Shown in pieces: positions 19,743 to 46,943 of a DNA stretch of 64,000 bases. The position numbers and the translations under genes were made by a program. The stretch's first letter is position 1. Every line of letters starts with the position of its first letter. The stretch spans positions 1-64,000 of the forward strand of contig JAZDMS010000040.1 of assembly GCA_043800705.1 (NCBI GenBank). Reading direction: 5' to 3'. This DNA is from Candidatus Altiarchaeota archaeon (GTDB lineage Archaea > Altiarchaeota > Altiarchaeia > IMC4 > SCGC-AAA252-I15). The notes beneath the pieces were generated by a model that saw only the letters and a list, made by a program, of their open reading frames with translations, made no database searches and was not told the DNA's origin.

Positions 19743-21253
19743 TCGTCCTCGACTTCGGAGGCCAGTACTGCCACCTCATAGCACGGAGGATAAGGGAGCT
19801 TGGAGTCTACTCCGAGGTCATGGCCTCCGACACGTCCGCAAAGGAACTCAAGGCAACGGGCGGCCTCAAGGGTGTCATCCTCTCCGGCGGAGCCGCATCC
19901 GTCTACGACGCAGGCAGCCCGAAATACTCCCCTGACCTACTCGAAGCCGGAGTCCCGATACTCGGCATCTGCTACGGCCACCAGCTGATAGCGCACATTG
20001 CGGGCGGATCCGTCGAAGGCGGGAAGGCCGGAGAATACGGGCTCACGGAGCTCGCAGTCATGAAGGCGGAAGGCATCCTGAAGGGGGTCAACGGCCGCAC
20101 GCCGGTCTGGATGAACCACCGCGACGTAGTGACCAAACTCCCGCCCGCGTACAAGGTCCTGGCCACAACCGCGAACACGCCTGTTGCGGCGTTCGGCAAC
20201 CCTAAACAGAACATTCACGGCGTCCAATTCCACCCCGAGGTGACCCACACCCGCGAGGGGATGAGCATACTCGAGAACTTCGTCGAGATATGCGGCGCAA
20301 GCCGCGACTGGAGCATGAAGGACTTCACCGTCAACTCCGTAGAGGAGGCGAAGTCGGTCATCGGCGGAAGGAGGGCGATCATCGGCCTGTCCGGCGGAGT
20401 CGACTCGTCGGCCGCTGCGGTCCTCCTGTCACGGGCCATCGGCGACAGGCTCACGGCGGTCTACGTCGACACCGGCCTCATGCGCTACCGAGAGACCGAG
20501 TTCATGGAAGAGACCTTCTCGGGCAGGGAGATGGACTTCAGGATCGTCAGGGCCGCCGACAGGTTCTTCGCGGCATTGAAGGGCGTCACCGACCCCGAGC
20601 AGAAGAGGAAGATTATCGGGGGCCTGTTCGTAGACATATTCGAGGAGGAAGCCGTGAAAGTCGGCGCCGAAGTCCTCGTCCAAGGCACGATATACTCGGA
20701 CCGGATAGAGTCCGGGGTCACCAAGCACTCGGACAACATCAAAAGCCACCACAACGTCGGCGGACTCAAGGAGAAGATGAAGCTGGAAGTCTACGAGCCG
20801 CTCCGGGACCTGTACAAGGACGAGGTCCGCGAGATCGCAAGGCAGCTGAAGCTCCCGGAGAAGATAATCACAAGGCACGTGTTCCCCGGCCCCGGCCTCG
20901 CCATAAGGATCATCGGAGAAGTCAACCCGAAGACGGCGGACATATGCAGGAAGGCGGGCAACATCGTCGAGGAGGAGCTGAAGAAGGCGGGAATCTACGA
21001 AAAATACTGGATGGGGTTCGCGGTCCTTCTGCCGATAAAGAGCGTCGGCATCCAGGGCGACTGCCGAAGCTACAAGCACCCCGTCGTCGTGCGCATAATC
21101 GAGTCGAAGGACGCCATGACCGCCAACTTCAGCAAGGTCCCCTACGAGGTGTTGGAGTCCATATCGACGAGGATAACGAACGAGATAGCCGACATCAACA
21201 GGGTCGTCTACGACATAACCAACAAGCCCCCAGCGACCATGGAATGGGAGTGA
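19730..21253 (+). CDS. guaA: GMP synthase (fused GATase + ATPPase)
   Basis: LDFGGQY, GICYGHQ, QFHPEV, LSGGVDS, IKSHHNV, FPGPGLAIR, KPPATMEWE. Confidence 0.96.
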   Translation: MEKIVVLDFGGQYCHLIARRIRELGVYSEVMASDTSAKELKATGGLKGVILSGGAASVYDAGSPKYSPDLLEAGVPILGICYGHQLIAHIAGGSVEGGKAGEYGLTELAVMKAEGILKGVNGRTPVWMNHRDVVTKLPPAYKVLATTANTPVAAFGNPKQNIHGVQFHPEVTHTREGMSILENFVEICGASRDWSMKDFTVNSVEEAKSVIGGRRAIIGLSGGVDSSAAAVLLSRAIGDRLTAVYVDTGLMRYRETEFMEETFSGREMDFRIVRAADRFFAALKGVTDPEQKRKIIGGLFVDIFEEEAVKVGAEVLVQGTIYSDRIESGVTKHSDNIKSHHNVGGLKEKMKLEVYEPLRDLYKDEVREIARQLKLPEKIITRHVFPGPGLAIRIIGEVNPKTADICRKAGNIVEEELKKAGIYEKYWMGFAVLLPIKSVGIQGDCRSYKHPVVVRIIESKDAMTANFSKVPYEVLESISTRITNEIADINRVVYDITNKPPATMEWE

Positions 21254-21266
21254 CGGCGGTCCAAAC

Positions 21267-22007
21267 CTACAATACGACACTCTCTTGGCCGCTGACCCAT
21301 CTGGCTATCTCCTGCGGGCTCGCATGTTCTATCTGGTGCATCCTGACGTCCGCCGCCGACTTGAGAAGCTGGAACAGGATTAGAAGCAGGGTCGGGCCTG
21401 CCATGCTCAGATAGTCCGCCGTGCTCCCCAGTCCAACGAGATACAAGCCCATGGACAGAAAGATCCCGCCGACGTAGATAAAACCCGAGGCGATTATGGT
21501 CAGGTGCATGGGCAAAATCCTGGCGAACGGGATTGCAGCCACGACCCCTATGTTCAACCTTTTTGAGCTATCCTCCCTGACATTGTGTATGTAGGAGAAT
21601 CCGTGGTTGACGAGGAATATTGCCACGGCCAGGAGCATCCACGGAATCTCCCCCGACAGGATCCGGTATCCCATATCACTCAAGGCAAAGAGCAGGAATA
21701 CGGCGTAGGCGGCATGGAAAAATCCGAATCCGATAATAAAAATGACGGTCACCCAGGCTTTCACGGCCGATGAAGGGGTCAACGGCAGGCCGTTTATCTC
21801 CACCCCTTCGGTGGAATAATCCCCGAGGCTGAGCATCCTAAGTAGGCTGAATAGCCCGATGATGAGGCTCTGGCACCAGTAAACCCACAGGACCGTCATC
21901 AGGTTCCAACCCTCCAAGACAGCCAGCAGAATCACGAACAGATTAGAGGCTGCAAGCGACACTGCCGAAGGATCAGACCATGCACTCTTCGCCGCCGCCT
22001 CAGGCAT
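21267..22007 (-). CDS. Membrane protein (DUF6498-like)
   Basis: Multiple TM segments; YW.QSLIIG and P..RILPMHLTII motifs. Confidence 0.7.
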   Translation of the reverse strand: MPEAAAKSAWSDPSAVSLAASNLFVILLAVLEGWNLMTVLWVYWCQSLIIGLFSLLRMLSLGDYSTEGVEINGLPLTPSSAVKAWVTVIFIIGFGFFHAAYAVFLLFALSDMGYRILSGEIPWMLLAVAIFLVNHGFSYIHNVREDSSKRLNIGVVAAIPFARILPMHLTIIASGFIYVGGIFLSMGLYLVGLGSTADYLSMAGPTLLLILFQLLKSAADVRMHQIEHASPQEIARWVSGQESVVL

Positions 22008-22059
22008 AGCCTATATCTGACTGCAGTGATAATAAACCCTCAAACAAAGTAACTATGCT

Positions 22060-22155
22060 ATGAGAATCCGCGACATCGGCGGCGAATTCACGCTAATCAA
22101 CCGACTCGTATACGACATAACCAATAAACCCCCCGCGACCATGGGGTGGGCGTGA
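22060..22155 (+). pseudogene. Chimeric relic: thiL 5' end fused to guaA 3' end
   Basis: MRIRDIGGEFTLINR+LVYDITNKPPATMGWA* vs ThiL MKIKDIGGEFALINRV and GuaA INRVVYDITNKPPATMEWE*. Confidence 0.9.
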
Positions 22156-22158
22156 ACG

Positions 22159-23352
22159 TCAAAGCCCGGTTATTCTGTATCTGATATTCTTTCCGGCAGT
22201 TCCGTAACCCGCTTCGAATTCCAGCCTAGCCTCTTTATCCAGGTATCTGCCGGATATAATCCCTTTATCCTGCCATTGCGTGCCATTACCCTCAGCATCG
22301 AAGGAGACCGCGTAGTCATACTCTCCCCCCTTTACCCCACCGCAGCCGGGCCCTGAAGCCATCCCGTTCAACTGGAATACCATAGTCTTTGTGAACCTGA
22401 CTACGGGCTTCTCGGCGAGATCCTGGTCCAGGAAAGTTCCCTCAGGCATCATATCCCCGTAGCCCCTACCGCCAGTAATCCCCTGGTTCTGGGGCGGGTC
22501 CATGTCGACCCCATCCATCATCAAATTAGTTATCCTGCAATCGACTCCGTTCTTTGAGATTTTAAGGGTTGACCCGTCCAACTCCCCCTCTTCCCCCCCA
22601 AACACCAGGGTGAATACCGATTTGTCCGGCTCCGATGAGCCGAAGAAGGAAATGGGCGCGATAGCCAGCCTATCGAAACCGTCGACCCTTACGACCTCCG
22701 TCGGATTCAGGGGGCTGAGACCCGTCACGGATGAAAAAGCGAGCAGGAAAAAGATTGATGCCCCAAACAGCATCCCCCCCGGAATCAGCCAACATAGGAC
22801 AGCCTTAATAGCGCTCATCCTGCAGGTCTGACGAAGGATAAGCGTCAGCAGATAGAATGAAAAAATATGCGGGATATAGCTTACGACGATAGCCCCCATT
22901 CCAAAGACCGGCGATATGACCCTCTCCAAAATCCCCTGGATCAACGGCTGCACAACAGCGGCGATGAGGATATAAACCGGGAAATAAACCGACGCCATCA
23001 TATAATAGAGCTCAGTGAACGTGCATCTTCCGCCAAGGATCCGTGCGACAAGATACTCCCCTCCTGCAAAAATGAACGAGGCAATGAGGCCCATGATGGG
23101 ATACCCGACCAGGCAGAAGATGAACATGAGGCCTACGATCACAAGGGGGCTCCCGGTTGCCAGCATCATGAGGGGCAGGGCAAACGCAGCAAACAATGAC
23201 GCAATAAGGACGACTTCCACGCCTCTCGTCATGGATGCCCGAGGCAGCTGCCTGGAAATCAGGGCGGAGGGGTTTTTAAACAAAAGAACGGCTTTTTCGC
23301 GGAACCTCAATTCCACGCTCAAATCATTTGCAGAAACCGGCTCACCTTCCAC
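22159..23352 (-). CDS. YIP1-like membrane protein with soluble C-terminal domain
   Basis: LFKNP, ARILGG.CTF, five TM helices followed by a beta-rich tail. Confidence 0.7.
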   Translation of the reverse strand: MEGEPVSANDLSVELRFREKAVLLFKNPSALISRQLPRASMTRGVEVVLIASLFAAFALPLMMLATGSPLVIVGLMFIFCLVGYPIMGLIASFIFAGGEYLVARILGGRCTFTELYYMMASVYFPVYILIAAVVQPLIQGILERVISPVFGMGAIVVSYIPHIFSFYLLTLILRQTCRMSAIKAVLCWLIPGGMLFGASIFFLLAFSSVTGLSPLNPTEVVRVDGFDRLAIAPISFFGSSEPDKSVFTLVFGGEEGELDGSTLKISKNGVDCRITNLMMDGVDMDPPQNQGITGGRGYGDMMPEGTFLDQDLAEKPVVRFTKTMVFQLNGMASGPGCGGVKGGEYDYAVSFDAEGNGTQWQDKGIISGRYLDKEARLEFEAGYGTAGKNIRYRITGL

Positions 23353-23417
23353 TGAATAATCTATCTGCGGGAATCCCTTAAATAATCCCTATATCATCCG
23401 ATCCGTCAGAACAAGGA

Positions 23418-23449
23418 TCAGCAAAGTCCGGTACGAAGTGTTGGCGTCC
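23418..23449 (+). pseudogene. Second relic of guaA 3' region
   Basis: 27/32 nt identical to guaA 21129-21160 (SKVRYEVLAS vs SKVPYEVLES). Confidence 0.7.
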
Positions 23450-23455
23450 CTCACA

Positions 23456-24130
23456 TTATTCCGATCGCCTGCAGTATCCGGTCACACAATACAGGTTGCC
23501 TATCTTTTTGACTTCATGACTGGGGAAGCCGCTTTCCGCCATCAACGAATCCACGCGGCTTCTACTGTAGAAATATACTTCACACCCTCCCAGCATCAGC
23601 CTCGTCTTTCTGATAGGTGCCCTCCAGGTCATCAGCCTGGGAAAAGATAAAACGACCACGTCCCCTGTCGCATCCCGCATCTTCTTGAGTAATGGCAGAG
23701 GCTCCTTAACGTAGTCGAATAATCCCATGCCTATGCACGCATCGAATTTCTCTGCGCCAACGTAGGCGTCTAGGCTCGAATGTATGAAACTGCATCTGTC
23801 ATCAACGCCGTTTTCCCGGGCGTTTCTCCTGGAAAGCCTTACCATGTTTTCCGATATGTCCAGGCCGACCACGCGCAGGGCTCCGTGTCTTGCGGCTTCC
23901 ACGCTGTACTTCCCGCTTCCGCATCCCACGTCAAGAACAGTTTTCCCCTCCAATGGCCGGATCTTTCCCATCGCATACTCGAATCGCCCGTACATGTCTG
24001 CCCTGAAGATGCGGTCGATCAGGTTCGACAACGCCGACTTATCGTGAGAATAAATCTTCTGGAACGACTCCGACTCGCTATTCCAATATTCCCTTTGGGT
24101 TTTCACAGCTCTAGACCCTCCCTTATGCAA
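23456..24130 (-). CDS. Class I SAM-dependent methyltransferase
   Basis: VLDVGCGSG, VVGLDISENM. Confidence 0.88.
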   Translation of the reverse strand: MHKGGSRAVKTQREYWNSESESFQKIYSHDKSALSNLIDRIFRADMYGRFEYAMGKIRPLEGKTVLDVGCGSGKYSVEAARHGALRVVGLDISENMVRLSRRNARENGVDDRCSFIHSSLDAYVGAEKFDACIGMGLFDYVKEPLPLLKKMRDATGDVVVLSFPRLMTWRAPIRKTRLMLGGCEVYFYSRSRVDSLMAESGFPSHEVKKIGNLYCVTGYCRRSE

Positions 24131-24924
24131 GTGAACCTGAAATCATCTAAAAGGCGCTCAAGCCGCCCGCGAGTCCCCCCGAGATTGCGGTAATGCCTGA
24201 ACCTCTTGGTTAAGGGCAGTTCCACGCGAGGCTGCCCGGGATCGAGCTCCCAGGGATGTATATAAAAGACTACTGGCCGGCCATTATTATTGCAATTCCT
24301 GATACAGTACCTTGTATAGGCATACGGGAATATGCGGAAGTAGCCGCCGCCGCTGCAAGGCAGCCGCATGCCGAAAAACTCCGCGCAGGAGAGCGGGAAT
24401 TCGGTTATTCCGGCGGATATCTTGTACGGCTTAAGCGGCGCATCGGGCACGCCATAATCCGGATGGAAAGAGATAGGAAAAACTGACGAGTCATACTTGA
24501 GCCCATATTCCTCCAACACCTCCAACGCCCAAAAAGTCTCCGGTTTTAGCGTGAATGAGGGAGCCCGGTACCCCAGGATTTTCTGTTTAACGCCGCAGTC
24601 CCTGACGCAGTCCAAGGCCTTCCCGACGTCTATCCTAAATTCTTCCTTATCCATCTGGCTCAACAGTGAATGGCCGTATCCGTGAATCCCTATCTCATGG
24701 CCGGCCTCGTCTATCTTCCGGATCAGATCAGGTACACGCTCCGCAATCCATCCCAAAACGAAGAAAGTGGCCTTAACCTTGTGGATTTCGAGCAGATCAA
24801 GTATCTGGTTTAACCCAATCCCGACTCTCAACTCGCATGAGTCCCAATTGCGTCTGTCGATGACCCGGCTGAGATTGCTGACGCAAAACCAATCCTCCAC
24901 ATCCACGGAAAAATAATTCAACAT
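24103..24924 (-). CDS. Polysaccharide deacetylase (DUF3473 type)
   Basis: SVDVEDWF, ATFFVLG, HEIGIHGYGH, GYRAPSF, YDSS, GGGYFR, FYIHPWELDP. Confidence 0.9.
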   Translation of the reverse strand: MLNYFSVDVEDWFCVSNLSRVIDRRNWDSCELRVGIGLNQILDLLEIHKVKATFFVLGWIAERVPDLIRKIDEAGHEIGIHGYGHSLLSQMDKEEFRIDVGKALDCVRDCGVKQKILGYRAPSFTLKPETFWALEVLEEYGLKYDSSVFPISFHPDYGVPDAPLKPYKISAGITEFPLSCAEFFGMRLPCSGGGYFRIFPYAYTRYCIRNCNNNGRPVVFYIHPWELDPGQPRVELPLTKRFRHYRNLGGTRGRLERLLDDFRFTCIREGLEL

Positions 24925-25060
24925 ATGCCGGTATAGTATTACCCCGCAGGATAAAAAATCTCCAGCTTAAAAACCGCCCTCAAACGGGGGATTGATGCGT
25001 CGGATCCTTAGGCGACGACGCTCTTGACACATATGAAGCCAACGGAATACGATAGAACGA

Positions 25061-25657
25061 TCAGGCATCCTTCTCGATGCCGTCGGCTATATCGCATAAT
25101 ACGTTGATCATCTCAGCCATCCTCTTTGGCTCGTAGATTATCCTCCGGCTCTTGAATAAAATCTCCCCCTGTTCTGTCGATACCTCATCCCTGCTGTGAA
25201 TCATCAATCTTTTCAGCCTGGATTCCACCGAATCGGTAAACACTCTGGCAGCTTTTGACTTGTCGGGCGCATAAATGTTCAATTCCCCGTTTTTCCCCTC
25301 GCCTCTTTTTACGAGAAAATTGTCGCTCTCACCCTCGTATGCCGCATATACCCATGTCGCATACCTCTCGATCAATCCTTTCCTTTCGAGTCGCACCCCC
25401 GCTTGTCTCCCCCTCACCTCGAAATCCACGCATGTTCCCGGATTCCATCCATCTGGTATTTCGCACCCCAGTTCCTCTGAAAGCTCCCTCAGCACCCTCT
25501 GAAACCTTGGTTTGGTGCTGATCTCATACCACATATACGGTTGGCTGCCGCTCAGCAGTATCATGCCCCCCTTCGGGCCGATCAAACGGGCGACTAACAG
25601 CATAAAGGCTGCGAAAGCTAACAGGATAATGGACGCCAGAGAAGAACTAATCTCCAT
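25061..25657 (-). CDS. Hypothetical membrane-anchored protein
   Basis: 198-aa ORF with N-terminal TM helix. Confidence 0.65.
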   Translation of the reverse strand: MEISSSLASIILLAFAAFMLLVARLIGPKGGMILLSGSQPYMWYEISTKPRFQRVLRELSEELGCEIPDGWNPGTCVDFEVRGRQAGVRLERKGLIERYATWVYAAYEGESDNFLVKRGEGKNGELNIYAPDKSKAARVFTDSVESRLKRLMIHSRDEVSTEQGEILFKSRRIIYEPKRMAEMINVLCDIADGIEKDA

Positions 25658-25696
25658 GGTGTTTTATTCATCTCAGTACAATAAATGCAAGATAAC

Positions 25697-26641
25697 ATGA
25701 AAATCAAGGACATAGGCGGCGAGTTCGCCCTCATCAACAGGGTTGCTCGGCCTGGCGGGGCGGTCGTCGGAGTAGGCGACGACGCGGCGGTCCTGAAGTA
25801 TACGAAGGAGCGGTATCAGCTTTTCACGACCGACATGCTCTGCGACGGCGATCATTTCCGCCGCGACTGGGCCAGCCCCGAACAGATAGGGATGAAGGCG
25901 ATGGAGGTCAACGTCTCAGACATCGCAGCAATGGGCGGCCTCCCCACATACGCTGTCATCTCAATATCACTGACACATGACACGTCGGTCGAGTTCATGG
26001 ACCGCCTCTACAAAGGCTTGTACCACGTCGCCGACAAATACGACCTCAACATCGTCGGCGGAGACACCACGCACGCGGACATGATGGTCATAAACGTCTC
26101 AATGCTCGGAGAAGTGGAAAAGGACAGATTATGCCTGCGCTCAGACGCGAAGGTCGGCGACCTCATATGCGTCACAGGCGACCTCGGAAAAAGCGCCGCA
26201 GGCCTCGAACTTTTGAAGGGGGGAATGCGCGGCGAGCTCACAGCGTATCTGGAGCCGAAATGCAGGCTAAAGGAGGCCAGGAAAATCTCACACTATGCAA
26301 ACGCGATGATAGACGTCTCCGACGGCCTGGCAAGCGAAGTCAACCACATCTGCCATATGAGCAAGGTCGGGGGCCTCGTGAGAAAGGAGGACATACCCAT
26401 ATCCAAATCCACTATCGAATCCGCGCATAAGGTCGGCAAAGACCCGTACGATTACGCATTGAACGGGGGGGAAGACTTCGAGCTCGTGTTCACCGTCCCT
26501 CAAGCGTACCTGGGGAAGGTGGCGCACATAGATTGCCCGGTCACTGTCGTCGGAGAGATAGTGGAGAAAAGGCAGGGTTTGACGATTGAGTCGTGCGGCA
26601 GGAAAAAGCCCCTGAAGGGAGGATACGACCACTTCAAGTAG
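25697..26641 (+). CDS. thiL: Thiamine-monophosphate kinase
   Basis: GEFALI, GDDAA, TTDML..GDHF, NVSDIAAMGG, GGDT, DVSDGL, GGEDFEL. Confidence 0.95.
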   Translation: MKIKDIGGEFALINRVARPGGAVVGVGDDAAVLKYTKERYQLFTTDMLCDGDHFRRDWASPEQIGMKAMEVNVSDIAAMGGLPTYAVISISLTHDTSVEFMDRLYKGLYHVADKYDLNIVGGDTTHADMMVINVSMLGEVEKDRLCLRSDAKVGDLICVTGDLGKSAAGLELLKGGMRGELTAYLEPKCRLKEARKISHYANAMIDVSDGLASEVNHICHMSKVGGLVRKEDIPISKSTIESAHKVGKDPYDYALNGGEDFELVFTVPQAYLGKVAHIDCPVTVVGEIVEKRQGLTIESCGRKKPLKGGYDHFK

Positions 26642-28277
26642 GTGTTTGGTTGAAGCGGAAAACCGCCATGGCCGGATATTCTCCCATTTCCACGCGCTCG
26701 TATTCGACGCTGTCCTTCATCATTTTCTCCAGTGTGGCGATGTCGACCTGATTTTTCGGAGCTAAACCGGATTCTAACGACACGTAAGCCGGATCATACG
26801 ATCTTAACAGAGCCAGTCCGCCCTCAGGTTTCCACTCCCAATTCCTCAGGATGATTTGATCGCATTTTGCGCCATTTCGGAACCGGAAAAGGGCTGAATA
26901 ATACTTTGCCTCCTGAGCCCGATAATCGTATCCGAAGATCTCGACAATCCTCATAGTACCGTTCGCCTGAAGGCCGCAGGCTTTCTCCATGAATCCCATA
27001 AGCTGCTCTTTATCGCTGTCGTGCGTCTGCAGCCCATTGAGGAAGGCTGTCCCGTCAGGTTTCCCCGCCAAACTGAAAGCCCACGAATCCACAAGGAGCA
27101 ACTGTAATGTTAGGAGCGCTAAGGCGGCAAGCGCGAAAGTTCTCGCATACTTGTCTGCCCGGCTTAAAATCCAACAGGAAACGACTGCGAAATATGGAAG
27201 TAGTGGGAGTAGGAATCTCGGGAACTCGTTGGTGGAAAAGGAAAAGACCAGATAAAACAGGATTATCTGAAAAATCGAGGCCATCAAATATATGTCCCAC
27301 GATTTGAATCCCTTTTTCACCGTGATCCATGCGAGAGCAAAAGGGGCGAAGATGAACATTGCGATCGTGAAGCCTGTTGTCAGGTTCACCCCCGATATCC
27401 CGGCCAATATCTGGAGCTTGCTGATGACATCCGCCCTATGCCCCCATCGGGGGGATGTTGCGGAAGAAACCGCGTGGCCCCAGGCCGGGCCGATGTGTAA
27501 ATAGAACCAGGCGGACGCCGACGCCGCCAAAACCAAGGCTGCGAACGCCAAGAGCGGGTTCAACTTCGCGAAGCCAAAGCCTTTCCCTCGGATTCTGGCC
27601 AACACTAGGGCCGCGGGCCCGATGCAGTAAAGGGGGGAGGACAGTTTCGAGAGGGCTCCTATGGATGCGGCTGCCAAAATGCTTGCAAGGATCGTTGCCT
27701 TGTCCATGGAGGCTGCACGGACCATAATCCTCATGAACAGGGTCACCGACAGGAGGACGAAGACGTCAGAGTAATACTGCCCCGACATTGCGACGAATAT
27801 CGGCGCGGCAGCGATAACGGCGCAGCCCGCAAGGGAGATGAGACGGTTGAAGTACATGGACTTCAGCGTTCCAAACATGATCCCAAGGGTCAGAACCTGC
27901 ACAAGGAAGACCGGCAGCCGAAGGCCGAACTCCATCGATTTCGTCAACAATCCAAGCGGGACGAAAAACTGCCCGACCCAAATCATCAAAGGCGGCTTAT
28001 ATGGGGATATTTGAAAAACCAAAGACAGCCAATTTTTGGGGTTGCTTTTTAGCTCCGAATAGAGCCTCAAAGACTCTTCGGCGTAGTCGAGGCAGTCGCC
28101 ACTCGGAAGTTTGGCGTCTAGGGCTATCCACACCAGACTCGGAGCCGCAAGAAGCAGGATGAAAAGGACAGCATATGTGTCCCCTCCTGCACGGAGACTT
28201 TTCAGCCGAGATTCCGGCAGCATCCAAGGTAATCTATTTTCGATGAATAATAATCGTTTTAAAAATGCCAGCCTCAT
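26634..28277 (-). CDS. GT-C (PMT/GT39-like) membrane glycosyltransferase
   Basis: D..DY, YKPPL, RFLLPLLP motifs; many TM segments; start uncertain. Confidence 0.75.
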   Translation of the reverse strand: MRLAFLKRLLFIENRLPWMLPESRLKSLRAGGDTYAVLFILLLAAPSLVWIALDAKLPSGDCLDYAEESLRLYSELKSNPKNWLSLVFQISPYKPPLMIWVGQFFVPLGLLTKSMEFGLRLPVFLVQVLTLGIMFGTLKSMYFNRLISLAGCAVIAAAPIFVAMSGQYYSDVFVLLSVTLFMRIMVRAASMDKATILASILAAASIGALSKLSSPLYCIGPAALVLARIRGKGFGFAKLNPLLAFAALVLAASASAWFYLHIGPAWGHAVSSATSPRWGHRADVISKLQILAGISGVNLTTGFTIAMFIFAPFALAWITVKKGFKSWDIYLMASIFQIILFYLVFSFSTNEFPRFLLPLLPYFAVVSCWILSRADKYARTFALAALALLTLQLLLVDSWAFSLAGKPDGTAFLNGLQTHDSDKEQLMGFMEKACGLQANGTMRIVEIFGYDYRAQEAKYYSALFRFRNGAKCDQIILRNWEWKPEGGLALLRSYDPAYVSLESGLAPKNQVDIATLEKMMKDSVEYERVEMGEYPAMAVFRFNQTPT

Positions 28278-28320
28278 GGCAATTCCACCGATTATATACT
28301 CCTTCGACAAATATCCCTTT

Positions 28321-29046
28321 ATGGTAGTGAACATCGTCGTGACCGGCAAGGTCCCTGACAATCCAACCATCATCGAAGCGTTCCCGAGCAGGGGATACGT
28401 CAGCACCATAGCAGGCAACCACCTCATCCGCCAGGAGAAGATGGAACAGATCGGCTACATAGAGTCCGACAAGCTCGACGCCATCGCAGTCGTCCACGAC
28501 GGCAAGCCCATGCACCCCATACGGATATACTCGAAGGGCGACCTGGTCGTCCTGTTCTCCGAGCTGATAATCCCCCTCAACCTCACACACGAGTTCAGCA
28601 CCGAAGTCATAAACTGGTTCAAGAAGATCAAGCCGAAGAAGGCGATCCTCCTGGCAAGCATCCCCGGGGTCGAGACCAGCAAGGAGCATGAGATATTGGC
28701 CGTGTCCACCGACGGGCAGATGATCGAGAAGATCAAGGCGTTGAAGATCAAGCAGATGAACGAGGGCGTCCTCACCGGGATGAGCTCGAGCCTGATGATA
28801 AAATGCTGCTGCTTAGAAATACCAGTCACGTCTCTGATGGTGGAGACGACCTACATACCCGACGTGCTCGCGGCGGCGAGCCTCATGAAGATGCTAAGCG
28901 ACATCCTCGGCCTTACCGTCAGCATAGAGGAGCTAACGAAGGCGGGCCACGACATCGAGGAGAAGTTCCGCGAAAACCTCGAACAGATGAAGATCGGCCA
29001 GGAAAACTTCAAAGAGATGCACCAACAATTGCCAATGTACAGATAG
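28321..29046 (+). CDS. Proteasome assembly chaperone (PAC2) family protein
   Basis: IEAFPSRGYVSTIA..HL, HPIRIY, GVLTG, PD..AAA, C-terminal PMYR. Confidence 0.85.
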   Translation: MVVNIVVTGKVPDNPTIIEAFPSRGYVSTIAGNHLIRQEKMEQIGYIESDKLDAIAVVHDGKPMHPIRIYSKGDLVVLFSELIIPLNLTHEFSTEVINWFKKIKPKKAILLASIPGVETSKEHEILAVSTDGQMIEKIKALKIKQMNEGVLTGMSSSLMIKCCCLEIPVTSLMVETTYIPDVLAAASLMKMLSDILGLTVSIEELTKAGHDIEEKFRENLEQMKIGQENFKEMHQQLPMYR

Positions 29047-29186
29047 CGGTCTTCCGTCTATCGCCCTGGCAAACGGTCCCGTCTTGGGCCTTGTTTGCGG
29101 CATGGGCTTGTTGCGGCGTCAGCCATCCATCAGAGAGACTGAGGCCTGAGGCCGAATGTCTCTCATTCGCCGGCCTTAGAAGGCCG
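29047..29186. repeat. Degenerate heptamer/hairpin element between duplicated PAC2 ends
   Basis: Starts TAG-CGGTCTTC like the element at 40939; ACTGAGG CCTGAGG units; CGAATG-TCTCT-CATTCG hairpin. Confidence 0.5.
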
Positions 29187-29234
29187 CAGGAGAACTTCAA
29201 GGAAATGCACCAGCAGCTGCCGATGTACCGCTGA
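29187..29234 (+). pseudogene. Duplicate of PAC2-family 3' end
   Basis: Encodes identical QENFKEMHQQLPMYR* to 28999-29046 with 9 of 16 codons synonymously changed. Confidence 0.92.
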
Positions 29235-31180: not shown

Positions 31181-31182
31181 GT

Positions 31183-31453
31183 GGCGGACATCCGGAAGTG
31201 GCTTCTTGGATCGACGCGCAGGTGGCTCCGGCGCGGTTCTCGCCCCCGCACCCCCACAAGCACAGTCCACTGAAGTTATGGCTGCTGCCTTCCGGCCCTG
31301 ACCAGATTCCTAAAATAGACCATCCAGTGAGACGAAGGCTCACGGTTCCGCACCGGACCCGCACGGCAACCCAAGACTCGCCTCCCGGCATTCAGCCCCG
31401 CCTAAGACGATTTGCGGCAACAGGCTACGCCTACCAGCCCGGCCTAGTCCACC
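31183..31453 (-). ncRNA. ffs: Signal recognition particle (SRP/7S) RNA
   Basis: 5' GGTGGACTAGGCCGGG Alu domain; helix 1 GGTGGAC/GTCCGCC; long helix 5; helix 8 TGGTCAGGGCCGGAAGGCAGCAGCCA (31279-31304); TTTTAA ~27 nt upstream. Confidence 0.9.
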
Positions 31454-31528
31454 GGTCAATGTATACGCAAAATCAGATTAAAAAACCAACCTCTCTCGCT
31501 CTTATACCTGGAAAATAATTTTTGTATT

Positions 31529-32923
31529 ATGTCCCCCATTATTCGTGTTCTCTTCGGCAAATCGAAAGGAAGATTTTTTCTGTTCATGCTATCCCTGCTG
31601 TCTGCTTTTATCGTTGTCGGCCAAGCGTCAGCCACCGAAGTCATTGTTGTCGGCAGGGAGCCGGCCACCAAGGTCATTCTTGTCGGCGGGGCGTCAGACA
31701 GGGAGCTTAAGGACTGCTGGGATAGCGGATACGCGCCCGAAAGGGTCTCATGCTATGCGAGGTATGCTTTCGAAATGGACGATCCCGGAATATGCGATCA
31801 AAGCCCCTATCATAGGTTTGACCGGGATCCATGTTTTAAGCTCTTAACAACGTCCTTGAAAAACAACACTCCGTGCGCAAGCATGAGGCGCGGGAATTCC
31901 CAAGCATTGTGCTATCGGATCATGTCCGTCTCAGACGACGGCGCACTCGCAGCATCGGTCCTCGGCAATTTCTCGGCCCCTGAAGACTGCGGTGTAGATT
32001 GCATGTCCCGCATCGCCGTTTTGATGCAAATGCCGGAAATCTGCAATACGATGATGTTCAGTCGCGATTCCTGTTTTGCTGAAGTCGCGATTAGGCTAAA
32101 CGATTCTGGCGTGTGCGAAAGGATGCTAGGAAACAGGGGTCGTTGCTATTCCGCGATGGCTATGAGGCTCGGTAACATTTCATTCTGCGACAAGATTGAA
32201 ACGCCTGACCTAAGGCTCGGCTGCCAGATTGAAATGGCTGTGTGGGCCGGTGACGCGTCAATCTGCCCTAAGGTCGCTGGCATTAACGTCTCCCGCGGCG
32301 ACGAATGCTTCATGAAGCTTGCATTGGGGCTGGGGGACGCCTCCTTATGCGGTAACATATCCTTACATCCCGGGGGAAAATTCCTTAAGAATGATGCTAG
32401 CAGGGACAACTGCTTCGAGGAGGTTGCCTTGAGGCTGAGGAACGAATCCGTCTGCAAGAACATCGAAGGCGAGAAAGATTGGTGCATTGCAAGAATAGCA
32501 AAGGACTATGCCATGTGCGAGAATTTAGAGGGCCCATGCCAGGTATACGTCTGCATGTCCCGTTTGGATGGGGTGAAAATATCCAATCCGGCTCCCAGCG
32601 ATTGCGAGATCTATCGCACCCCCCGGGCCATAGTCACCGTAACCTACAACATCAGGATTTTATTACTGGTCATAAGCATATTCGTAGCGGCTCTATATTG
32701 TCTTGCACAAACCGCGAAAGAGTTGATTTCGTCCCGGAAGGCGGATAGAAGACCGGATATCAAAGCCTTGGCAAAGAAAATGATCCTGTTCGTCCTGATT
32801 TTGGCGGCATTAAACATCCTCGCCTATGCCTACGTATCCATCTATCTCGCATATGAGCCTCCGACGACCGCCGCCGCAAAATTCAGCGAAATGAAATTTT
32901 TTATGGAGGGAGGAGCAATTTGA
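31529..32923 (+). CDS. Secreted Cys-repeat surface protein with two C-terminal TM helices
   Basis: Signal peptide; multiple C....A....D.S.C..I repeats. Confidence 0.75.
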   Translation: MSPIIRVLFGKSKGRFFLFMLSLLSAFIVVGQASATEVIVVGREPATKVILVGGASDRELKDCWDSGYAPERVSCYARYAFEMDDPGICDQSPYHRFDRDPCFKLLTTSLKNNTPCASMRRGNSQALCYRIMSVSDDGALAASVLGNFSAPEDCGVDCMSRIAVLMQMPEICNTMMFSRDSCFAEVAIRLNDSGVCERMLGNRGRCYSAMAMRLGNISFCDKIETPDLRLGCQIEMAVWAGDASICPKVAGINVSRGDECFMKLALGLGDASLCGNISLHPGGKFLKNDASRDNCFEEVALRLRNESVCKNIEGEKDWCIARIAKDYAMCENLEGPCQVYVCMSRLDGVKISNPAPSDCEIYRTPRAIVTVTYNIRILLLVISIFVAALYCLAQTAKELISSRKADRRPDIKALAKKMILFVLILAALNILAYAYVSIYLAYEPPTTAAAKFSEMKFFMEGGAI

Positions 32924-32949
32924 CTGATACCACGGACGAGACAAAGCGT

Positions 32950-33021
32950 CCTCCCGGCACTCAGCCCCGCCTAAGACGATTTGCGGCGGCAGGCTGCGCC
33001 TGCCAGCCCGGCCTAGTCCGC
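32950..33021 (-). pseudogene. Alu-domain-only copy of SRP RNA 5' end
   Basis: 72 nt matching 31381-31452 with 6 substitutions. Confidence 0.88.
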
Positions 33022-38781: not shown

Positions 38782-40938
38782 ATGAAGTACAGCATGGATT
38801 ATTCAAGGATTTTATCAGCCATATTTTTTGTTGCCGTCCTCTTGACCGCCATACCCCCGGCTAGCGCAGCCACCGGCATAGACGACATGGAAGTCAGCGT
38901 GCCCAATTCGATTGACACAGGCGGTAACTTCGACGTCTTCGTCAAATTCACGGCCGCAGACGACGAGAACAACGCCGACGTCGACGTCGGAATAACAGTC
39001 GACGGAGTCCTCGTGCATCAGAAGGTCAGGTCCATCGACCTTGTCGACGGGCGCAGCTACAACTTCACAATCAACTCGAACGACTTCGAGCTGGAAGAGG
39101 ACGACCTCGGCAGGGTCTGGTCCGAGAACCTCATGAACTACAGATGCGGTGACAACCTGGATGTCGAAGTGACCCTCTCCGGAGACATTGAAGACACGGT
39201 CGAATCAGACAAAATCGACATCAACGGCGACGACGGAGAATTGTCAGTGTCCCTCGACCCAGAGCTGCCAGCAATCGACGAGAAGTTCATCGTGGCGGTC
39301 ATAGACGAGGACGACGACGAACTGAACGGCGCATCCGTCAAACTTACCTGGACGGACTACAACAGCGGGATAGACGACGCCACATGGGACGTCGACGACA
39401 AATCCAAGATCAAGACGACGGACTCCGACGGAGAGGCCGACTTCAAGATATCGAATGACATGGGCAAGAGCGCATACGGCAACTACCAGATAGACGTCAC
39501 AAAGGCCGACTACTGCAAAGAGACCCTGACTATGTCGGTCCTCAACGGCCTCAACATGAGCGGCCCGACGCCGGCCAACCCGAAGGCGGGCGAGCAGTTC
39601 AGGGTCAACGTCACCTCCCTCTCGGGGAAGGCTGCAATAGGCCTCATCGTGACCCTCACGCCAGGAAACGTGAAGAGCCAGGTCCTTCAGGACGGGACAG
39701 CCCCGTTCACGATAGCATCGCCCGGGTCATACACGCTCATAGTCGGCGGCGGAACCACCGGGTATGACGAGGTGATGAAGACCGTCCAGGTCTCGACGAA
39801 GTCACAGCTGACGATCGACTTCTCCTCCGCGATGCCGCCTGTCGGCAAGGAGATGACCCTAACGGTCACGGCAAATGACGCCCCCGTTGAAGGCGCGACG
39901 GTCAAGGTCACTCCGCAGGGCGGCACCGAGCAGACCGTGGGGACGACCTCAAAGGACGGCACCGTAAAATACACCCCCGCCACATCTGTAAGCTACACGG
40001 TGAAGGCCTCAAAGACCACATACGACGAGGCTACCGACACGTTCACCTCAAAGGGGACCTTCCAGATAGAGCTCCCCCCGGCATCCGACCTCAAGAAGGG
40101 CAGCCAGGTGACGGTGACAGTCAAGGACGCATCAGGCAACCCCGTCCCGGCAGCCACGGTCTACGCAGGCCCAGGGATCACAGGACCCACGGACACGTCC
40201 GGCAAATACACGTTCACGCTGCCTGACGTCGGAACATACACGATCTCCGTCACAAAGGCCGGATACTCGGACGGAACGGCGACCCTCAGCACCACCGGCC
40301 AGCTGTCCGTCAAAGTCGACAAGAAGGAGATAGCCCTCGGAGACTCGGTAAAGATAACCGTCATGAATTCTAACGGGCAGCCTGTCGAATCATCCCTGGA
40401 TATAACCGGCCCGTCCGTAGGCGACACGAAAACCGCATCGGAATACTCCTACACCCCGACCAAAGCCGGAGACTACCAGGTGCGGGCGTCCAAGGCCAGC
40501 TACGGCTCATCATCCGACACCTTCAAGGTATTGTCCAAGACGGTCACAGTGACCTACATGTTCCAGGAGGACAAACTATACGTCAACGTGACAAGCGGCG
40601 GCAGGCCCCAACAGGGCGTACCCCTGACTGTCACCCTAGGTAACGCATCACTGAAGGCGTCGACTGACTCCACAGGCATGGCGAGCGTGCCGGCGAACGA
40701 GACAGGCGAATACGTTATCGCAGTCGCAGGCCCCGACTATACGGGAGCCCCGGTGACGGCGCTGAAATCAACGACGGCGATAATCTCCGATCTGTGGGTG
40801 CCAGTCCTCATAGTGCTGGTCGTACTCGTGCTGATCGGCATATTCGCAGTCGTCGCAATCAGCCTGATGCAGCGGCGCGGAGGCGGCTCGAAGCCCACAT
40901 TCAAACGCCGCTCCGACGGGACCCACCTGGGACGTTAG
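38782..40938 (+). CDS. Surface protein with repeated Ig-like domains and C-terminal TM, paralogous architecture
   Basis: Signal peptide; acidic N domain; PV.GATV, GTYTISVTKAGY repeats; TM + QRRGG tail. Confidence 0.8.
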   Translation: MKYSMDYSRILSAIFFVAVLLTAIPPASAATGIDDMEVSVPNSIDTGGNFDVFVKFTAADDENNADVDVGITVDGVLVHQKVRSIDLVDGRSYNFTINSNDFELEEDDLGRVWSENLMNYRCGDNLDVEVTLSGDIEDTVESDKIDINGDDGELSVSLDPELPAIDEKFIVAVIDEDDDELNGASVKLTWTDYNSGIDDATWDVDDKSKIKTTDSDGEADFKISNDMGKSAYGNYQIDVTKADYCKETLTMSVLNGLNMSGPTPANPKAGEQFRVNVTSLSGKAAIGLIVTLTPGNVKSQVLQDGTAPFTIASPGSYTLIVGGGTTGYDEVMKTVQVSTKSQLTIDFSSAMPPVGKEMTLTVTANDAPVEGATVKVTPQGGTEQTVGTTSKDGTVKYTPATSVSYTVKASKTTYDEATDTFTSKGTFQIELPPASDLKKGSQVTVTVKDASGNPVPAATVYAGPGITGPTDTSGKYTFTLPDVGTYTISVTKAGYSDGTATLSTTGQLSVKVDKKEIALGDSVKITVMNSNGQPVESSLDITGPSVGDTKTASEYSYTPTKAGDYQVRASKASYGSSSDTFKVLSKTVTVTYMFQEDKLYVNVTSGGRPQQGVPLTVTLGNASLKASTDSTGMASVPANETGEYVIAVAGPDYTGAPVTALKSTTAIISDLWVPVLIVLVVLVLIGIFAVVAISLMQRRGGGSKPTFKRRSDGTHLGR

Positions 40939-41037
40939 CGGTCTTCGGTTCTCGGTTCTCGGTTTTCCGTCAAGACTGAAAACTGAGAACTGAAAACTGA
41001 AAACTGAAAACTGCAGACAGGAAACCGCAGACCGTGG
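40939..41037. repeat. Inverted heptamer-repeat element
   Basis: (CGGTYYT)x4-CCGTCAAG-(ACTGAAA-like)x9. Confidence 0.85.
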
Positions 41038-42879: not shown

Positions 42880-43096
42880 TTCTTGCGAAGAATCCGGAAA
42901 GCTGCGCTTTCTGTCGCCGCGGAACTGCGTTCCGCGTAATCGCTAGCGGAAAGAAACATATTCGGTTGATATGTGCATGTTTGTCCATCAGCAGCTACCC
43001 TTGTCGCAAACTTTTCTTTTGTAAAGAAAAGTTTGACCAAAAGAAACATATTCGGTTGATATATGCATATCTGTCCATCAGCAGCTACCCTTGTCG
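42880..43096. repeat. Hairpin cluster plus 57-bp direct repeat flanking an A/T-tract palindrome
   Basis: 42950-43006 and 43040-43096 (3 mismatches); CAAACTTTTCTTT-TGT-AAAGAAAAGTTTG between them; GAAAGC-TGC-GCTTTC and CGCGGAAC-TGC-GTTCCGCG upstream. Confidence 0.85.
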
Positions 43097-43327
43097 TCAC
43101 TGGTCGGACTACTTCGCTGTCATCACATGAACAATTATACTAAGCATACTGGCTATATATCCGGAACAGTGGCCTCATTTTGCCCCAGTGCTAACCTTCC
43201 CCTCCTCCTTGAACATTATCCGAACGCTTCGCCGCTTTTATACTATTCCTCCAATAACTAAACCTATTCAGGAGGGGGGGTGAATAACACTACCTCTCTG
43301 ATAAGTCAAATTGAGGTGAAAAGAAAA

Positions 43328-43534: not shown

Positions 43535-43568
43535 GGATAAAAATACTCATCTAGGGGGGTGAGGGGTA

Positions 43569-44735: not shown

Positions 44736-44775
44736 GAGTGGATAAACTATAATGACCGCCTTCTTTTTGCCGAAT

Positions 44776-45402: not shown

Positions 45403-45499
45403 CTTCCCTCAGCCTGTCGAACTCGGCGAGCCTCCTGCGCCAATCACATCTTCCTGCCATCTCAAGGCATCGAAGAAGCCGCATCCGCCGACGATCCAT
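45341..45499 (-). CDS. Possible small partner ORF upstream of the nucleotidyltransferase
   Basis: 52-aa MDRRRMRLL..RRRLAEFDRLRE overlapping the NTase start. Confidence 0.3.
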   Translation of the reverse strand: MDRRRMRLLRCLEMAGRCDWRRRLAEFDRLREDGQDGEFASELRSALRGRVR

Positions 45500-45531
45500 A
45501 AGATAATACCTGCCTAAACCGAAATAAAAAG

Positions 45532-46803
45532 TCAAACCCCATTTTTCGGTTTTTTCACGGTCTTTTCGGCCTTTTTCCCGGATCCTCCGTTTTCGAGGTT
45601 GTATCTGACCACCTTCTCCTTGAAATCCATTATCGCCGCGTGGTAGTTGAGGCCCGCGTCGAACGGGTTGCCGTGGTGGCTGAAGTACTCGTGGACGGAG
45701 CCGTCGCCCATCCCCTTCGTGCACATGTAGTAATAGTGGTCGCTTATCTGGAACATCTTCCACACCTTCATCATCTCCGGGTTCTTGGAGGCCCTCACGT
45801 CGTTTTCCATCTCCTTCAGCCTGGAGAAGTTCAAATGCTGCATGTGGTTGCCGAGCCATGCGCTGGCGTCCCGCTCCATGTCAGCCCAGCTGACTGTCTC
45901 ATACCAGGGGACCGTGATCTCCCCCCTCGGATAATACCTGTCCGCGACCTCGCTCGGCGTGTTGAACTCCAGGTTCTGCTTCTCCAGTATCTTATGCGGC
46001 ATCGCATCCAGGAAGTGGAATATGCCAGTGTCCTCCCACTGGTGTTCGCCGAAGGTCTCATAGTCCATGAAGATGTTGATCGTGTCCTCGGCCGACCAGC
46101 TCAGCCAGTCCGCATACTTCTCCGCGGAAAGCGGCCAACCCGGCCACCACTTCGCGCTGAAACGGTATCCGACGTCGTCGGAGAGCTTGTAATTCCTCAA
46201 AAGGACCTTCAGCTTCCCCCCCTTCCTCGTATAGACGAAATTAGGGCTTCTCCACCCGTCCAAGACCCTCTCGATCCCCTCGGTGAGTATGGCCTTGAAC
46301 CCCATCTCCTCAGCCTCCTTCGCGATCGTGTCGTGGTACAGGAGCTCCGTGTTCCTGAACACCTTCGGCTTCTGGCCGAGGTAGTCCTTCACCATCTGCT
46401 GGTGCTCCAATACCTGCTCCCTGAACTCCTCCCTCTGCTCGAAGAGGCTCGCCAAGGAATGGTACCTGGTCTCGTTGATGAACTCGCAGCAGCCGGACTT
46501 CCCCAACTGCCTGAAAAGGTCCAAAAGGTCCGGCTCCCACCTCTCCATCTGCTCTAAAATGGAACCGGAAAGCGAATACGAGACCTTGAACTTCCTGTTC
46601 TGGCCTTTGAGGCGGTCGATGTTGGCCATGATGTTCTTCGTCGCAGGCCAATAACACTTCTTCGCCACCTTATGCAAAGTCCACTCATTGAGGCCGTTGT
46701 CGAAATAATAGTCCTCTAGGCCGTTCTTCGGGACCCCATTCGGCCAGAACCACTTCAGACGAAACGGCTGGTGGACTTGAAAATATAAGCAGACGGATGT
46801 CAT
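45532..46803 (-). CDS. Glycoside hydrolase family 57 (alpha-amylase-like)
   Basis: FQVHQPFRL, YHSLA, FRNTEL, LSDDVGYRF, DYETFGEHQW, SWAD.ERD.SAWLGN, SDHYYYM. Confidence 0.92.
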   Translation of the reverse strand: MTSVCLYFQVHQPFRLKWFWPNGVPKNGLEDYYFDNGLNEWTLHKVAKKCYWPATKNIMANIDRLKGQNRKFKVSYSLSGSILEQMERWEPDLLDLFRQLGKSGCCEFINETRYHSLASLFEQREEFREQVLEHQQMVKDYLGQKPKVFRNTELLYHDTIAKEAEEMGFKAILTEGIERVLDGWRSPNFVYTRKGGKLKVLLRNYKLSDDVGYRFSAKWWPGWPLSAEKYADWLSWSAEDTINIFMDYETFGEHQWEDTGIFHFLDAMPHKILEKQNLEFNTPSEVADRYYPRGEITVPWYETVSWADMERDASAWLGNHMQHLNFSRLKEMENDVRASKNPEMMKVWKMFQISDHYYYMCTKGMGDGSVHEYFSHHGNPFDAGLNYHAAIMDFKEKVVRYNLENGGSGKKAEKTVKKPKNGV

Positions 46804-46830
46804 ATCACTCCCCCCGCTTTATTCGGCCCC

Positions 46831-46882
46831 TCTTTCTTTTTCGCCAGCGTTTTTCTTTCTGGGAGAGAAAGAAAAAGGCTGG
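46831..46882. repeat. A/T-tract palindrome of the same type as 43007-43047
   Basis: TTTCTTTTTCG-CCAGCGTTTTTCTTTCT-GGGAG-AGAAAGAAAAAGGCTGG. Confidence 0.75.
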
Positions 46883-46943
46883 GCTTGAACCACTTCAACC
46901 TGAACGGCTGATGGACTTGAAAGTATAGGCAGACTGAAGTCAT
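46881..46943 (-). pseudogene. Duplicate of GH57 5' end
   Basis: MTSVCLYFQVHQPFRLKWF identical over 19 codons, 8 of them synonymously changed; has its own SD-like GAGGGG. Confidence 0.92.

Follow-up and report, generated by a model that had tools for sequence, protein, structure and literature searches.

How can the end of a conserved gene come to lie twice in an archaeal chromosome, once on either side of inserted DNA, with the gene itself intact? A 64,000-nt stretch from the genome of a Candidatus Altiarchaeota archaeon (the window; contig C25, positions 1-64000) raises this question at four loci: the guaA/thiL junction, the 3' end of the PAC2 gene, the 5' end of the signal recognition particle (SRP) RNA gene, and the 5' end of the GH57 gene (Table 1). 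The genome is a 2.0-Mb draft of 43 contigs, 87.6% complete, for which a simple in-house caller, also the source of the codon statistics, called 2022 genes. A sequence-only reading of the window had placed diverged duplicates at these four loci, and alignment with shuffled controls finds all of them where that reading put them. The direct repeats at the four loci are 48 to 74 nt long, and repeat pairs score 49 to 250, against a maximum of 23 to 30 in the shuffled controls; all four duplicate pairs are real, far beyond chance. With a probability of roughly 55%, we take them to be insertion scars of the kind called insertion with long target duplication (ILTD): the block that entered would combine the gene end of a diverged ortholog with DNA next to it, and the original end would have been displaced as a relic.

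Table 1. Positions in the window of the duplicated gene ends and of the DNA between them (X, resident copy; Y, relic)
Feature	Position	Strand	Basis or remark
guaA (GMP synthase)	19730-21253	+	Pfam GATase and GMP_synt_C; resident 3' copy X = 21194-21253
Cargo 1: DUF6498 membrane-protein gene (21267-22007), between guaA stop and chimeric relic	21254-22059	-	Pfam PF20108
Chimeric relic	22060-22155	+	thiL-5'-like head 22060-22101, guaA-3'-like tail 22096-22155
Cargo 2: four opposite-strand genes (Yip1-like, methyltransferase, polysaccharide deacetylase, 198-aa ORF)	22156-25684	-	Pfam
thiL, resident	25685-26641	+	Pfam AIRS/AIRS_C; 5' region ~25697-25741 homologous to relic head
PAC2 3' end, resident X	28999-29046	+	Pfam PAC2; many rare codons
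PAC2 insert: unique filler 29047-29129, then double-hairpin module 29130-29186	29047-29186	+	
PAC2 3' relic Y	29187-29234	+	begins at first base past hairpin foot (offset 0)
SRP RNA gene	31182-31454	-	Rfam RF01857, 132 bits; resident 5' copy X = 31381-31450
DNA between SRP copies: SRP promoter region and 464-aa Cys-rich ORF (31529-32923)	31455-32949	+	
SRP RNA 5' 70-nt relic	32950-33019	-	65/70 identical to resident
Extra intergenic pair of the same design, 42950-43006 and 43040-43096	42950-43096	.	repeat D14, 54/57 identical (95%); 33-nt palindrome between 57-nt copies
GH57 5' end including ribosome-binding site, resident X	46742-46815	-	Pfam Glyco_hydro_57; repeat D7
GH57 insert: T-rich long-stem module variant (TTCGC and 16-bp hairpin, 46840-46881)	46816-46881	+	
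GH57 5' relic Y	46882-46955	-	0-5 nt from hairpin foot

At PAC2, all 15 sense codons of the two copies specify the same residues, and 8 of these codons as well as the stop codon differ. The filler between the copies has no second copy in this genome or in the 61 genomes that form our comparison set for the phylum, and the module that follows it is 89 to 91% identical to copies at C22:26487-26542 and C10:6415-6458 and is recognized by a covariance model, R1, with an E value of 1.6e-14. Codon usage sets the resident end apart: its mean ln relative adaptiveness is -0.87, as against -0.22 in the preceding 30 codons, and it lies near the 5th percentile of 679 gene ends. The relic is native-like in codon usage, and its codons are closer than those of the resident copy to the relatives G003, G001, G016, and G007. 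The insertion site is empty in the four relatives whose gene end aligned. As to the stop codons, the resident gene has TAG (29044-29046) and the relic TGA (29232-29234); four relatives have TGA or TAA.

At GH57, the two copies are identical at 60 of 74 positions. Their first 19 codons specify the same residues with 8 codons changed, and codon 20, at the repeat edge, differs (TGG vs AAG). The insert is 92% identical over 53 nt to C18:34921-34973, which is itself located between two copies of the ArgG 3' end. The relic opens a 47-codon open reading frame (ORF) that runs through the module; its stop codon and the real start codon overlap as ATGA. In the relatives, the 20 nt upstream of the start that were compared are uninformative on which copy is native. 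Beyond GH57, a sulfatase gene (47109-48434) precedes a debranching-enzyme gene; no sulfatase match was found between the GH57 and debranching-enzyme genes in G006 or G016, where the two are divergent neighbours.

The sequence-only reading counted 17 changed codons of 35 at PAC2 and GH57, all of them synonymous, and argued from this against neutral decay of a local duplicate. The count is reproduced as 9 of 16 (PAC2, stop included) plus 8 of 19 (GH57), and the argument holds genome-wide, with the changed sense codons of 11 relic/resident pairs being 75 synonymous vs 16 non-synonymous. Of random codon changes, the structure of the genetic code makes about three quarters non-synonymous. The count took pairs of a gene end with an intergenic copy of it. 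Left out were pairs with both copies in called genes or in one repeat protein (three at C15, and those at C17, C21, C25:6679, C3, C6, and C14:96530; 19 synonymous and 7 non-synonymous), contig-end or simple-repeat pairs (C27, C10:30225, C25:69824, and C25:69890), two identical pairs on C33 (0/0), and C39, a doubtful 62-aa ORF (6 synonymous and 7 non-synonymous), with which the totals become 81 vs 23.

Scars are found well outside the window. Local (<10 kb) self-matches genome-wide comprise 223 direct vs 14 inverted ones, and 82 simple two-copy direct pairs lie no more than 10 kb apart, many with a spacing of 90 to 250 nt. For 1433 genes, the terminal 24 residues at either end served as tblastn probes, with two internal control probes per gene. 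The C-terminal probes gave 27 same-strand intergenic local matches, 24 of them downstream, and the N-terminal probes gave 16; about 13 genes carry a C-terminal relic 58 to 143 nt downstream. Tandem paralogues are the source of the matches to the internal controls (16 and 6), none of which lies within 200 nt.

Codon usage also distinguishes the copies at module sites across the genome. Over 61 synonymous differences, codons ending in G or C number 24 in the resident copies vs 38 in the relics, the core-gene G+C content at third codon positions (GC3) being 0.80, and summed log codon preference is -100.7 for the residents and -71.1 for the relics. The resident segment falls at or below about the 5th percentile of the 679 gene ends in four of six diverged cases. 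In PAC2, XPD, and ArgG, the drop in codon usage starts near the duplication boundary and does not reach a further 30 to 60 codons, by a test of low power. The insertions at XPD, ArgG, and an aminotransferase gene are found at none of the 14 orthologous loci in five relatives, yet the two copies here differ at up to half of their codons, as diverged as different species; this is more than in-place divergence since the species split would give. Because the insertions are absent in relatives and yet the copies are diverged at species level, one copy of each pair would stem from another functional ortholog. Aligned with the relatives' orthologs, the PAC2 relic and the SRP and guaA resident ends match the relatives, while GH57, XPD, ArgG, and the aminotransferase are uninformative.

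At the SRP RNA locus, the duplicated end is non-coding. The resident copy and its upstream/promoter region match five relatives. The relic has five differences, all transitions toward G/C, four of which are U-to-C, and the five relatives all carry the resident state at the four U-to-C sites. By a manual reading of the alignment, three of the U-to-C changes would convert G.U to G-C in a 7-bp helix. Such changes would be the RNA counterpart of synonymous change, and the relic appears to derive from a different functional SRP RNA. These transitions, together with the empty sites and species-level divergence at XPD, ArgG, and the aminotransferase, uphold the proposal of the sequence-only reading that one copy of each pair came from a functioning ortholog. 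The Cys-rich ORF between the SRP copies belongs to no Pfam family and has a codon score of 0.10 per codon.

The guaA/thiL locus holds whole genes between its copies. As guaA and thiL adjoin directly in four of four relatives (G001, G003, G006, and G016), the 4.4 kb between them here is inserted; in G003 the start of thiL and the stop of guaA overlap, and PAC2 follows thiL by no more than 1 kb in three of these four. The island genes between guaA and thiL and the 464-aa ORF near SRP score 0.10 to 0.18 per codon for codon bias, as against 0.37 to 0.45 in core genes: 0.18 for the DUF6498 gene vs 0.45 for guaA, and 0.11 to 0.15 for the cargo 2 genes. The DUF6498 protein has no match in the guaA regions of four relatives. 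The resident 3' end of guaA and its copy (repeat D15) are identical at 50 of 60 positions; the resident end agrees with the four relatives at 6 to 9 of the 10 differing sites and shares with them the ending EWE-stop, where the relic tail ends GWA-stop.

The relic at guaA/thiL is a chimeric mini-ORF. Its first 14 to 15 codons resemble the thiL start (from 25697) and are followed by a guaA tail, and the joint lies within 12 to 14 nt of microhomology common to the guaA tail and the thiL head (ATCAAC... / TCAACAGGGTCG-like stretch). The likeness to the resident thiL region extends into the upstream DNA, over some 25 to 35 nt before the relic head. Of the two guaA/thiL copies listed in the sequence-only reading, this one indeed joins thiL-like to guaA-like sequence, whereas the other, 23418-23449, is a second guaA fragment that matches guaA 21129-21160 and not thiL (27/32 identical; alignment score 44, with a maximum of 35 in 300 shuffles). 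A single event explains the chimera: two lineages that each already had a different guaA-thiL island recombined, with guaA as the anchor and the microhomology as the point of resolution. An earlier event of this type is suggested by the second guaA fragment. In-situ tandem duplication of the whole guaA-thiL island is ruled out, as the 0.8-kb and 3.5-kb inserts share just the ~25 to 35 nt upstream of thiL. Between thiL and PAC2, on the opposite strand, there is a 597-aa PMT_2 glycosyltransferase gene (26634-28427) with codon usage so atypical that the in-house caller rejected it. No flanking relic is seen, and the protein has no match between thiL and PAC2 in three relatives; in G001 there is a 44-aa match overlapping the PAC2 start.

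Whereas class B sites (guaA/thiL and SRP RNA) hold whole genes, class A sites, which include PAC2, GH57, and at least nine more in this genome, hold a double-hairpin module of about 55 nt. It consists of a 7-bp stem with a structured loop (hairpin A), TTCGCC, and a terminal hairpin CAGCC..GGCTG (hairpin B), in place of which the GH57, ArgG, and aminotransferase modules have a long T-rich stem. A strict scan recovers 14 copies, vs 0 to 2 with scrambled prefixes, and two variants were added by hand. Significant flanking direct repeats accompany 11 of the 16 modules, with the second copy beginning 0 to 5 nt past the hairpin foot; where there is a repeat, it is 37 to 155 nt long. Unique filler of 10 to 90 nt, with no other copy in the genome, separates the first copy from the module. 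In all 10 module loci with an identifiable gene, the intact gene or tRNA is on the hairpin-A side and the relic faces the hairpin-B foot. tRNA genes are frequent targets, and at additional ends of genes and tRNAs, hairpins of other families take up this position. Six of the seven pairs of the hairpin A stem covary (15 copies, six genomes). The module has no Rfam match at E up to 5, and by eye it does not fit a K-turn or C/D box.

Compared by eye, the sequences at the module junctions are unrelated. Apart from a 9-mer at two events described below, no target motif recurs across sites; by eye, there are no terminal inverted repeats around the inserts and no consistent microhomology at the module joints, including with the hairpin 3' end. 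Priming by microhomology with the hairpin 3' end was rejected on this visual comparison of the junctions. Simple tandem duplication is ruled out, as the DNA past copy 1 is unrelated to the DNA past copy 2. Two events on C33 (4000-4202 and 12163-12361) have gene-end pairs that are 100% identical, with unrelated filler and different hairpin modules, and both begin at the 9-mer GTACATGAG, of which there are 25 copies in the genome. The event at C33:12163 leaves an intact end to each of two convergent genes that had overlapped by 14 nt.

The module is spread through the phylum. Model R1, made from the 15-copy alignment, matches 29 of the 61 genomes, with 1 to 37 copies each, and the best copy per genome has a significant flanking repeat in 13 of the 29 and one no more than 5 nt from the foot in 9, including 100%-identical pairs. 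Because R1 and the flanking repeats recur across genomes of the phylum, an accident of this one assembly cannot account for the architecture. At ABCE1, G000, G001, and G003 have the same module and filler in the same place, but their relics measure 155 nt (92% identical), 50 nt (100%), and 6 nt, respectively, and the site is empty in G004, G006, and G016 (three of six genomes). As the ABCE1 relic lengths differ among the three, the hairpin-foot joint changes over time. The pair in the genome studied here is a mosaic, with 85 identical nt by the hairpin foot and 9 differences clustered in 70 nt by the filler. Also, a virus-like IMG/VR contig of 5349 nt (L083 1-83, L084 ~985-1070), with a sigma-70 region-4-like ORF recognized by eye, has the TTCGCC-hairpin pattern in each arm of a ~83-nt terminal inverted repeat; with 19 specified bases, the pattern could be a chance match.

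Reading frames at the relics differ between gene starts and gene ends. Both 5' relic ORFs cross the module and stop at the resident start, by the ATGA overlap at GH57 and by TAA-A-ATG at ABCE1, and at these 5' sites translational coupling may pass on expression from the old promoter and start. Traced back from the relic through the insert, the frame stays open at PAC2, C10, and C33:4000, which are module sites, and at C13, whose insert belongs to another family. The 3' relics lack a start codon, and in three of four module cases their frame is not that of the gene.

A Pfam scan of the 52 ORFs called in the window shows no recombinase domain, and no integrase or transposase in or beside the inserts, in agreement with the sequence-only reading. 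The genome encodes one tyrosine recombinase of 283 aa, and no Y1 transposase or TnpB was found in it.

How would such a block be inserted? We propose that it enters a conserved gene close to its end, so that the gene would read into the incoming end and the original end would be pushed to the far side as an untranslated relic. At class A sites, the block would comprise a gene-end copy, unique filler, and the module, whose hairpin-B foot would be the distal end, joined 37 to 155 nt inside the target at an arbitrary position. Homology to the gene end would position the block, and the hairpin would define or protect its other end. In the version we prefer, a short single strand would anneal at the replication fork, and its 5' hairpin flap would escape trimming and be ligated. 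This chemistry, like the absence of a dedicated enzyme, we infer; a homology-positioned, hairpin-joined block is suggested by the pairing of one constant with one homologous end, the fixed polarity, block sizes of 90 to 250 nt, and a foreign look that starts near the boundary. At class B sites, a block with whole genes would be joined illegitimately in microhomology or at an arbitrary site, by homology-facilitated illegitimate recombination between syntenic, diverged genomes.

The division into two classes departs from the sequence-only reading, which held one uniform gene-capture process responsible at all four loci: PAC2 and GH57 hold nothing captured but the conserved double-hairpin module. 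Its mechanism, recombination anchored in the core gene with an illegitimate second joint, fits guaA/thiL, with the 12 to 14 nt of microhomology and the adjoining genes in relatives. It is not supported at PAC2 and GH57, where the hairpin foot is the joint and no consistent microhomology is seen by eye, and the atypical codons that start near the boundary in PAC2, XPD, and ArgG show, by the low-power test, no long upstream anchor.

A more far-reaching version of our reading is doubtful in our view. In it, the module would be a phylum-wide, gene-less mobile cassette that moves between lineages without a recombinase of its own, as a block of about 90 to 250 nt: the re-coded gene or tRNA end would home to the orthologous site, the trimming-resistant hairpin would be ligated, and 5' cassettes would pass translation from the old start to the new. 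The size range of archaeal Okazaki fragments is about 90 to 250 nt. If true, the cassette would explain both the unbroken host gene and the old end left as a relic.

Several observations count against insertion of a diverged gene end. As the relatives are equidistant from the two copies at module loci other than PAC2 (80 vs 79 sites; XPD, ArgG, and the aminotransferase included), the direction of transfer is inferred from codon usage alone. The copy that looks odd varies by locus: at PAC2 and XPD it is the resident end, but at SRP and guaA it is, contrary to expectation, the relic. The identical C33 pairs look like duplication on the spot, not import, and their shared GTACATGAG hints at a sequence-specific cut, which the favoured model does not predict. 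With the PAC2 block as a query against the 61 genomes of the phylum, just the module core and PAC2 orthologs matched, so that no donor was found, nor did a metagenome scan with the PAC2 protein find a relative. The structures are known from assembled contigs alone. Finally, the label "integrase-free" given in the sequence-only reading agrees with the Pfam scan of the window, but lack of an integrase is absence of evidence in a genome 87.6% complete, and the enzyme gene could be missing from it.

Some of these same observations would suit transposition on the spot, which we regard as a possible but unlikely origin. An unknown, possibly host-encoded enzyme would insert the module with a long, variable target duplication, and the copies would start out identical, with synonymous differences added by later exchange or gene conversion. 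Such a process would account for the two identical pairs with unique filler that both start from GTACATGAG, for the G001 ABCE1 relic, which is identical to the resident at 50 of 50 positions next to a module common to G000 and G003, and for the mosaic ABCE1 pair; conservation of the module throughout the phylum is likewise as for a protein-recognized site. However, the insert has a single defined end, with unique filler at the other, and terminal inverted repeats are not seen by eye. Gene-blind insertion should give both orientations, whereas all 10 loci have the relic at the hairpin-B foot. The search of the genome turned up no transposase family, and the atypical codons of resident ends would need a second event at every old site.

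That the inserts are integrase remnants is improbable. Plasmids or viruses that target gene ends and bring a substitute end would have been deleted down to their attachment-site arms, the hairpin being an integrase-binding arm. The geometry equals that of icd, e14, and icdC as described in the part of PMC13626634 drawn on here, tRNA genes are often module targets, and the hairpin resembles an inverted-repeat binding site. Still, there is no integrase in or near the window inserts and a single 283-aa tyrosine recombinase in the genome, one module family occupies at least 16 sites with no common crossover sequence by eye, and the duplication length varies between 6 and 155 nt within one locus. 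Inserts of 33 to 146 nt would each require a near-total internal deletion.

Quite improbable, too, is the idea that relics are kept because they are used, so that a 5' relic starts an upstream ORF coupled to the real start and the synonymous pattern reflects selection on the relic instead of foreign origin. The ORFs that stop at the resident start of GH57 (ATGA) and ABCE1 (TAA-A-ATG) are in keeping with it, as are the frames open through the insert at PAC2, C10, C33:4000, and C13. Coupling, however, requires an open frame and not a conserved peptide. Furthermore, the 3' relics without a start codon, out of frame in three of four module cases, and the non-coding SRP RNA and tRNA relics of the same design are at odds with it, and the G003 ABCE1 relic is down to 6 nt with its gene intact. 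Chimeric co-assembly or mis-binning of two related populations, for which a 43-contig draft and copies that differ as two populations would might speak, is very improbable, given that every joint lies at the foot of the same conserved hairpin, that the same architecture occurs in independently assembled genomes (13 of 29), including 100%-identical pairs, that the resident genes are intact and in frame, and that an assembler has no reason to place a 55-nt structured module between strain variants.

Compared with known classes, the scars fall closest to ILTD, in that the repeats exceed 30 bp, the target is single and uninterrupted in relatives at guaA-thiL, PAC2, XPD, ArgG, the aminotransferase, and, in three of six genomes, ABCE1, and the window ORFs include no integrase or transposase. 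Site-specific integrative elements are set apart by the lack of a window recombinase, by the presence of at least 16 module sites with junctions unrelated by eye, and by the varying boundary at ABCE1. Transposons and miniature inverted-repeat transposable elements (MITEs) do not match a hairpin-B end that alone is constant, with unique filler on the other side, and duplications of 6 to 155 nt. Nor do diversity-generating retroelements, as the differences are mostly synonymous and of all types and the 52 window ORFs include no reverse-transcriptase domain. Homology-facilitated illegitimate recombination is matched by the 12 to 14 nt of joint microhomology at guaA/thiL, with none that is consistent by eye at the module joints.

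ILTD was reportedly described by Nobusato et al. in 2000. In the survey of Furuta et al. (2010; PMC2853133), it concerns bacterial restriction-modification genes, with direct repeats of >30 bp and variable length that often span a start or stop, align with a single empty site in relatives, and come with no mobility gene. The portion of that survey used here reports that no archaeal case survived the screen, gives repeat identities of about 89 to 99% in part of a table, and proposes no mechanism. The scars described here are alike in having variable repeats of >30 bp at gene ends, empty sites in relatives, and no mobility gene; they differ in their mostly synonymous divergence and recurrent small structured cargo, neither of which is reported in the same portion of PMC2853133. 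In a full-text literature search for "long target duplication", none of the titles among the matches listed was on archaea or small hairpin cargo. The footprint is known from bacteria and is found here in an archaeal phylum, with a conserved module marking the joint.

Homology-facilitated illegitimate recombination and the related "C-terminal displacement" are known from de Vries and Wackernagel (2002), Prudhomme (2002), and Jackson (2009), as cited in PMC5361080. Going by the sections of that source relied on here, the former anchors one side by homology in a conserved gene and joins the other illegitimately, which class B matches, and the latter leaves stacked displaced 3' ends, comparable to the guaA fragments 22096-22155 and 23418-23449. 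The two are, by the same sections, known from transformable bacteria and from toxin/immunity loci, where the new end is functionally different, whereas here the same residues are encoded. The module sites differ from homology-facilitated illegitimate recombination in having no microhomology by eye and no visible long foreign anchor tract.

The e14 prophage, which carries its own integrase, was reportedly described at icd by Hill et al. in 1989. According to the part of PMC13626634 considered here, this 15-kb prophage of Escherichia coli supplies a replacement 3' end to icd, leaves the icdC pseudogene at the other border with conservative differences, and is excised site specifically from a single site. 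The likeness is that an incoming end keeps the gene intact, with the displaced original surviving as a relic at the far border. The inserts here, by contrast, range from 33 nt to 3.5 kb at many sites, with no recombinase found in the window. MITEs, repetitive extragenic palindromes and bacterial interspersed mosaic elements (REP/BIME), and Rickettsia palindromic elements are short, dispersed, hairpin forming, and non-coding, as is our module, and are sometimes found at gene ends. To our knowledge, they have two defined ends or none, have a short target duplication or none at all, and bring no spare gene end, whereas the module has one defined end, a long duplication, and a spare gene end.

These loci illustrate how foreign DNA can enter the ends of essential genes (guaA, SRP RNA, PAC2, ABCE1, ArgG, XPD, and tRNAs) without damage or a recognizable recombinase. 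A structurally conserved cargo in 29 of 61 genomes, one end of which is always the joint, offers a testable handle on the mechanism of ILTD. For annotation, the scars explain mini-ORFs that mimic gene ends, and they carry the warning that the last or first 15 to 50 codons of a core gene can have a history unlike that of the rest of the gene.

Other repeats were seen along the way. Long imperfect palindromes of 7-nt units (GGTTTTC/AGTTTTC, then the complementary GAAAACT/GAAAACC) are intergenic and often lie directly past stop codons, at 40934-41035 and 53360-53447 in the window and at C12:76829-77005, C28:2325-2449, C33:4-167, and C25:69824-70319. At the 3' end of the Hsp20 gene (52252-52860), 63 nt (21 codons) are duplicated in tandem and in frame, with 98% identity (52723-52848). 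Tandem paralogues also lie side by side at 6488-7685, where two genes for winged-helix (HTH_24) regulators, 182 and 183 aa long, share 74% identity over 268 nt.

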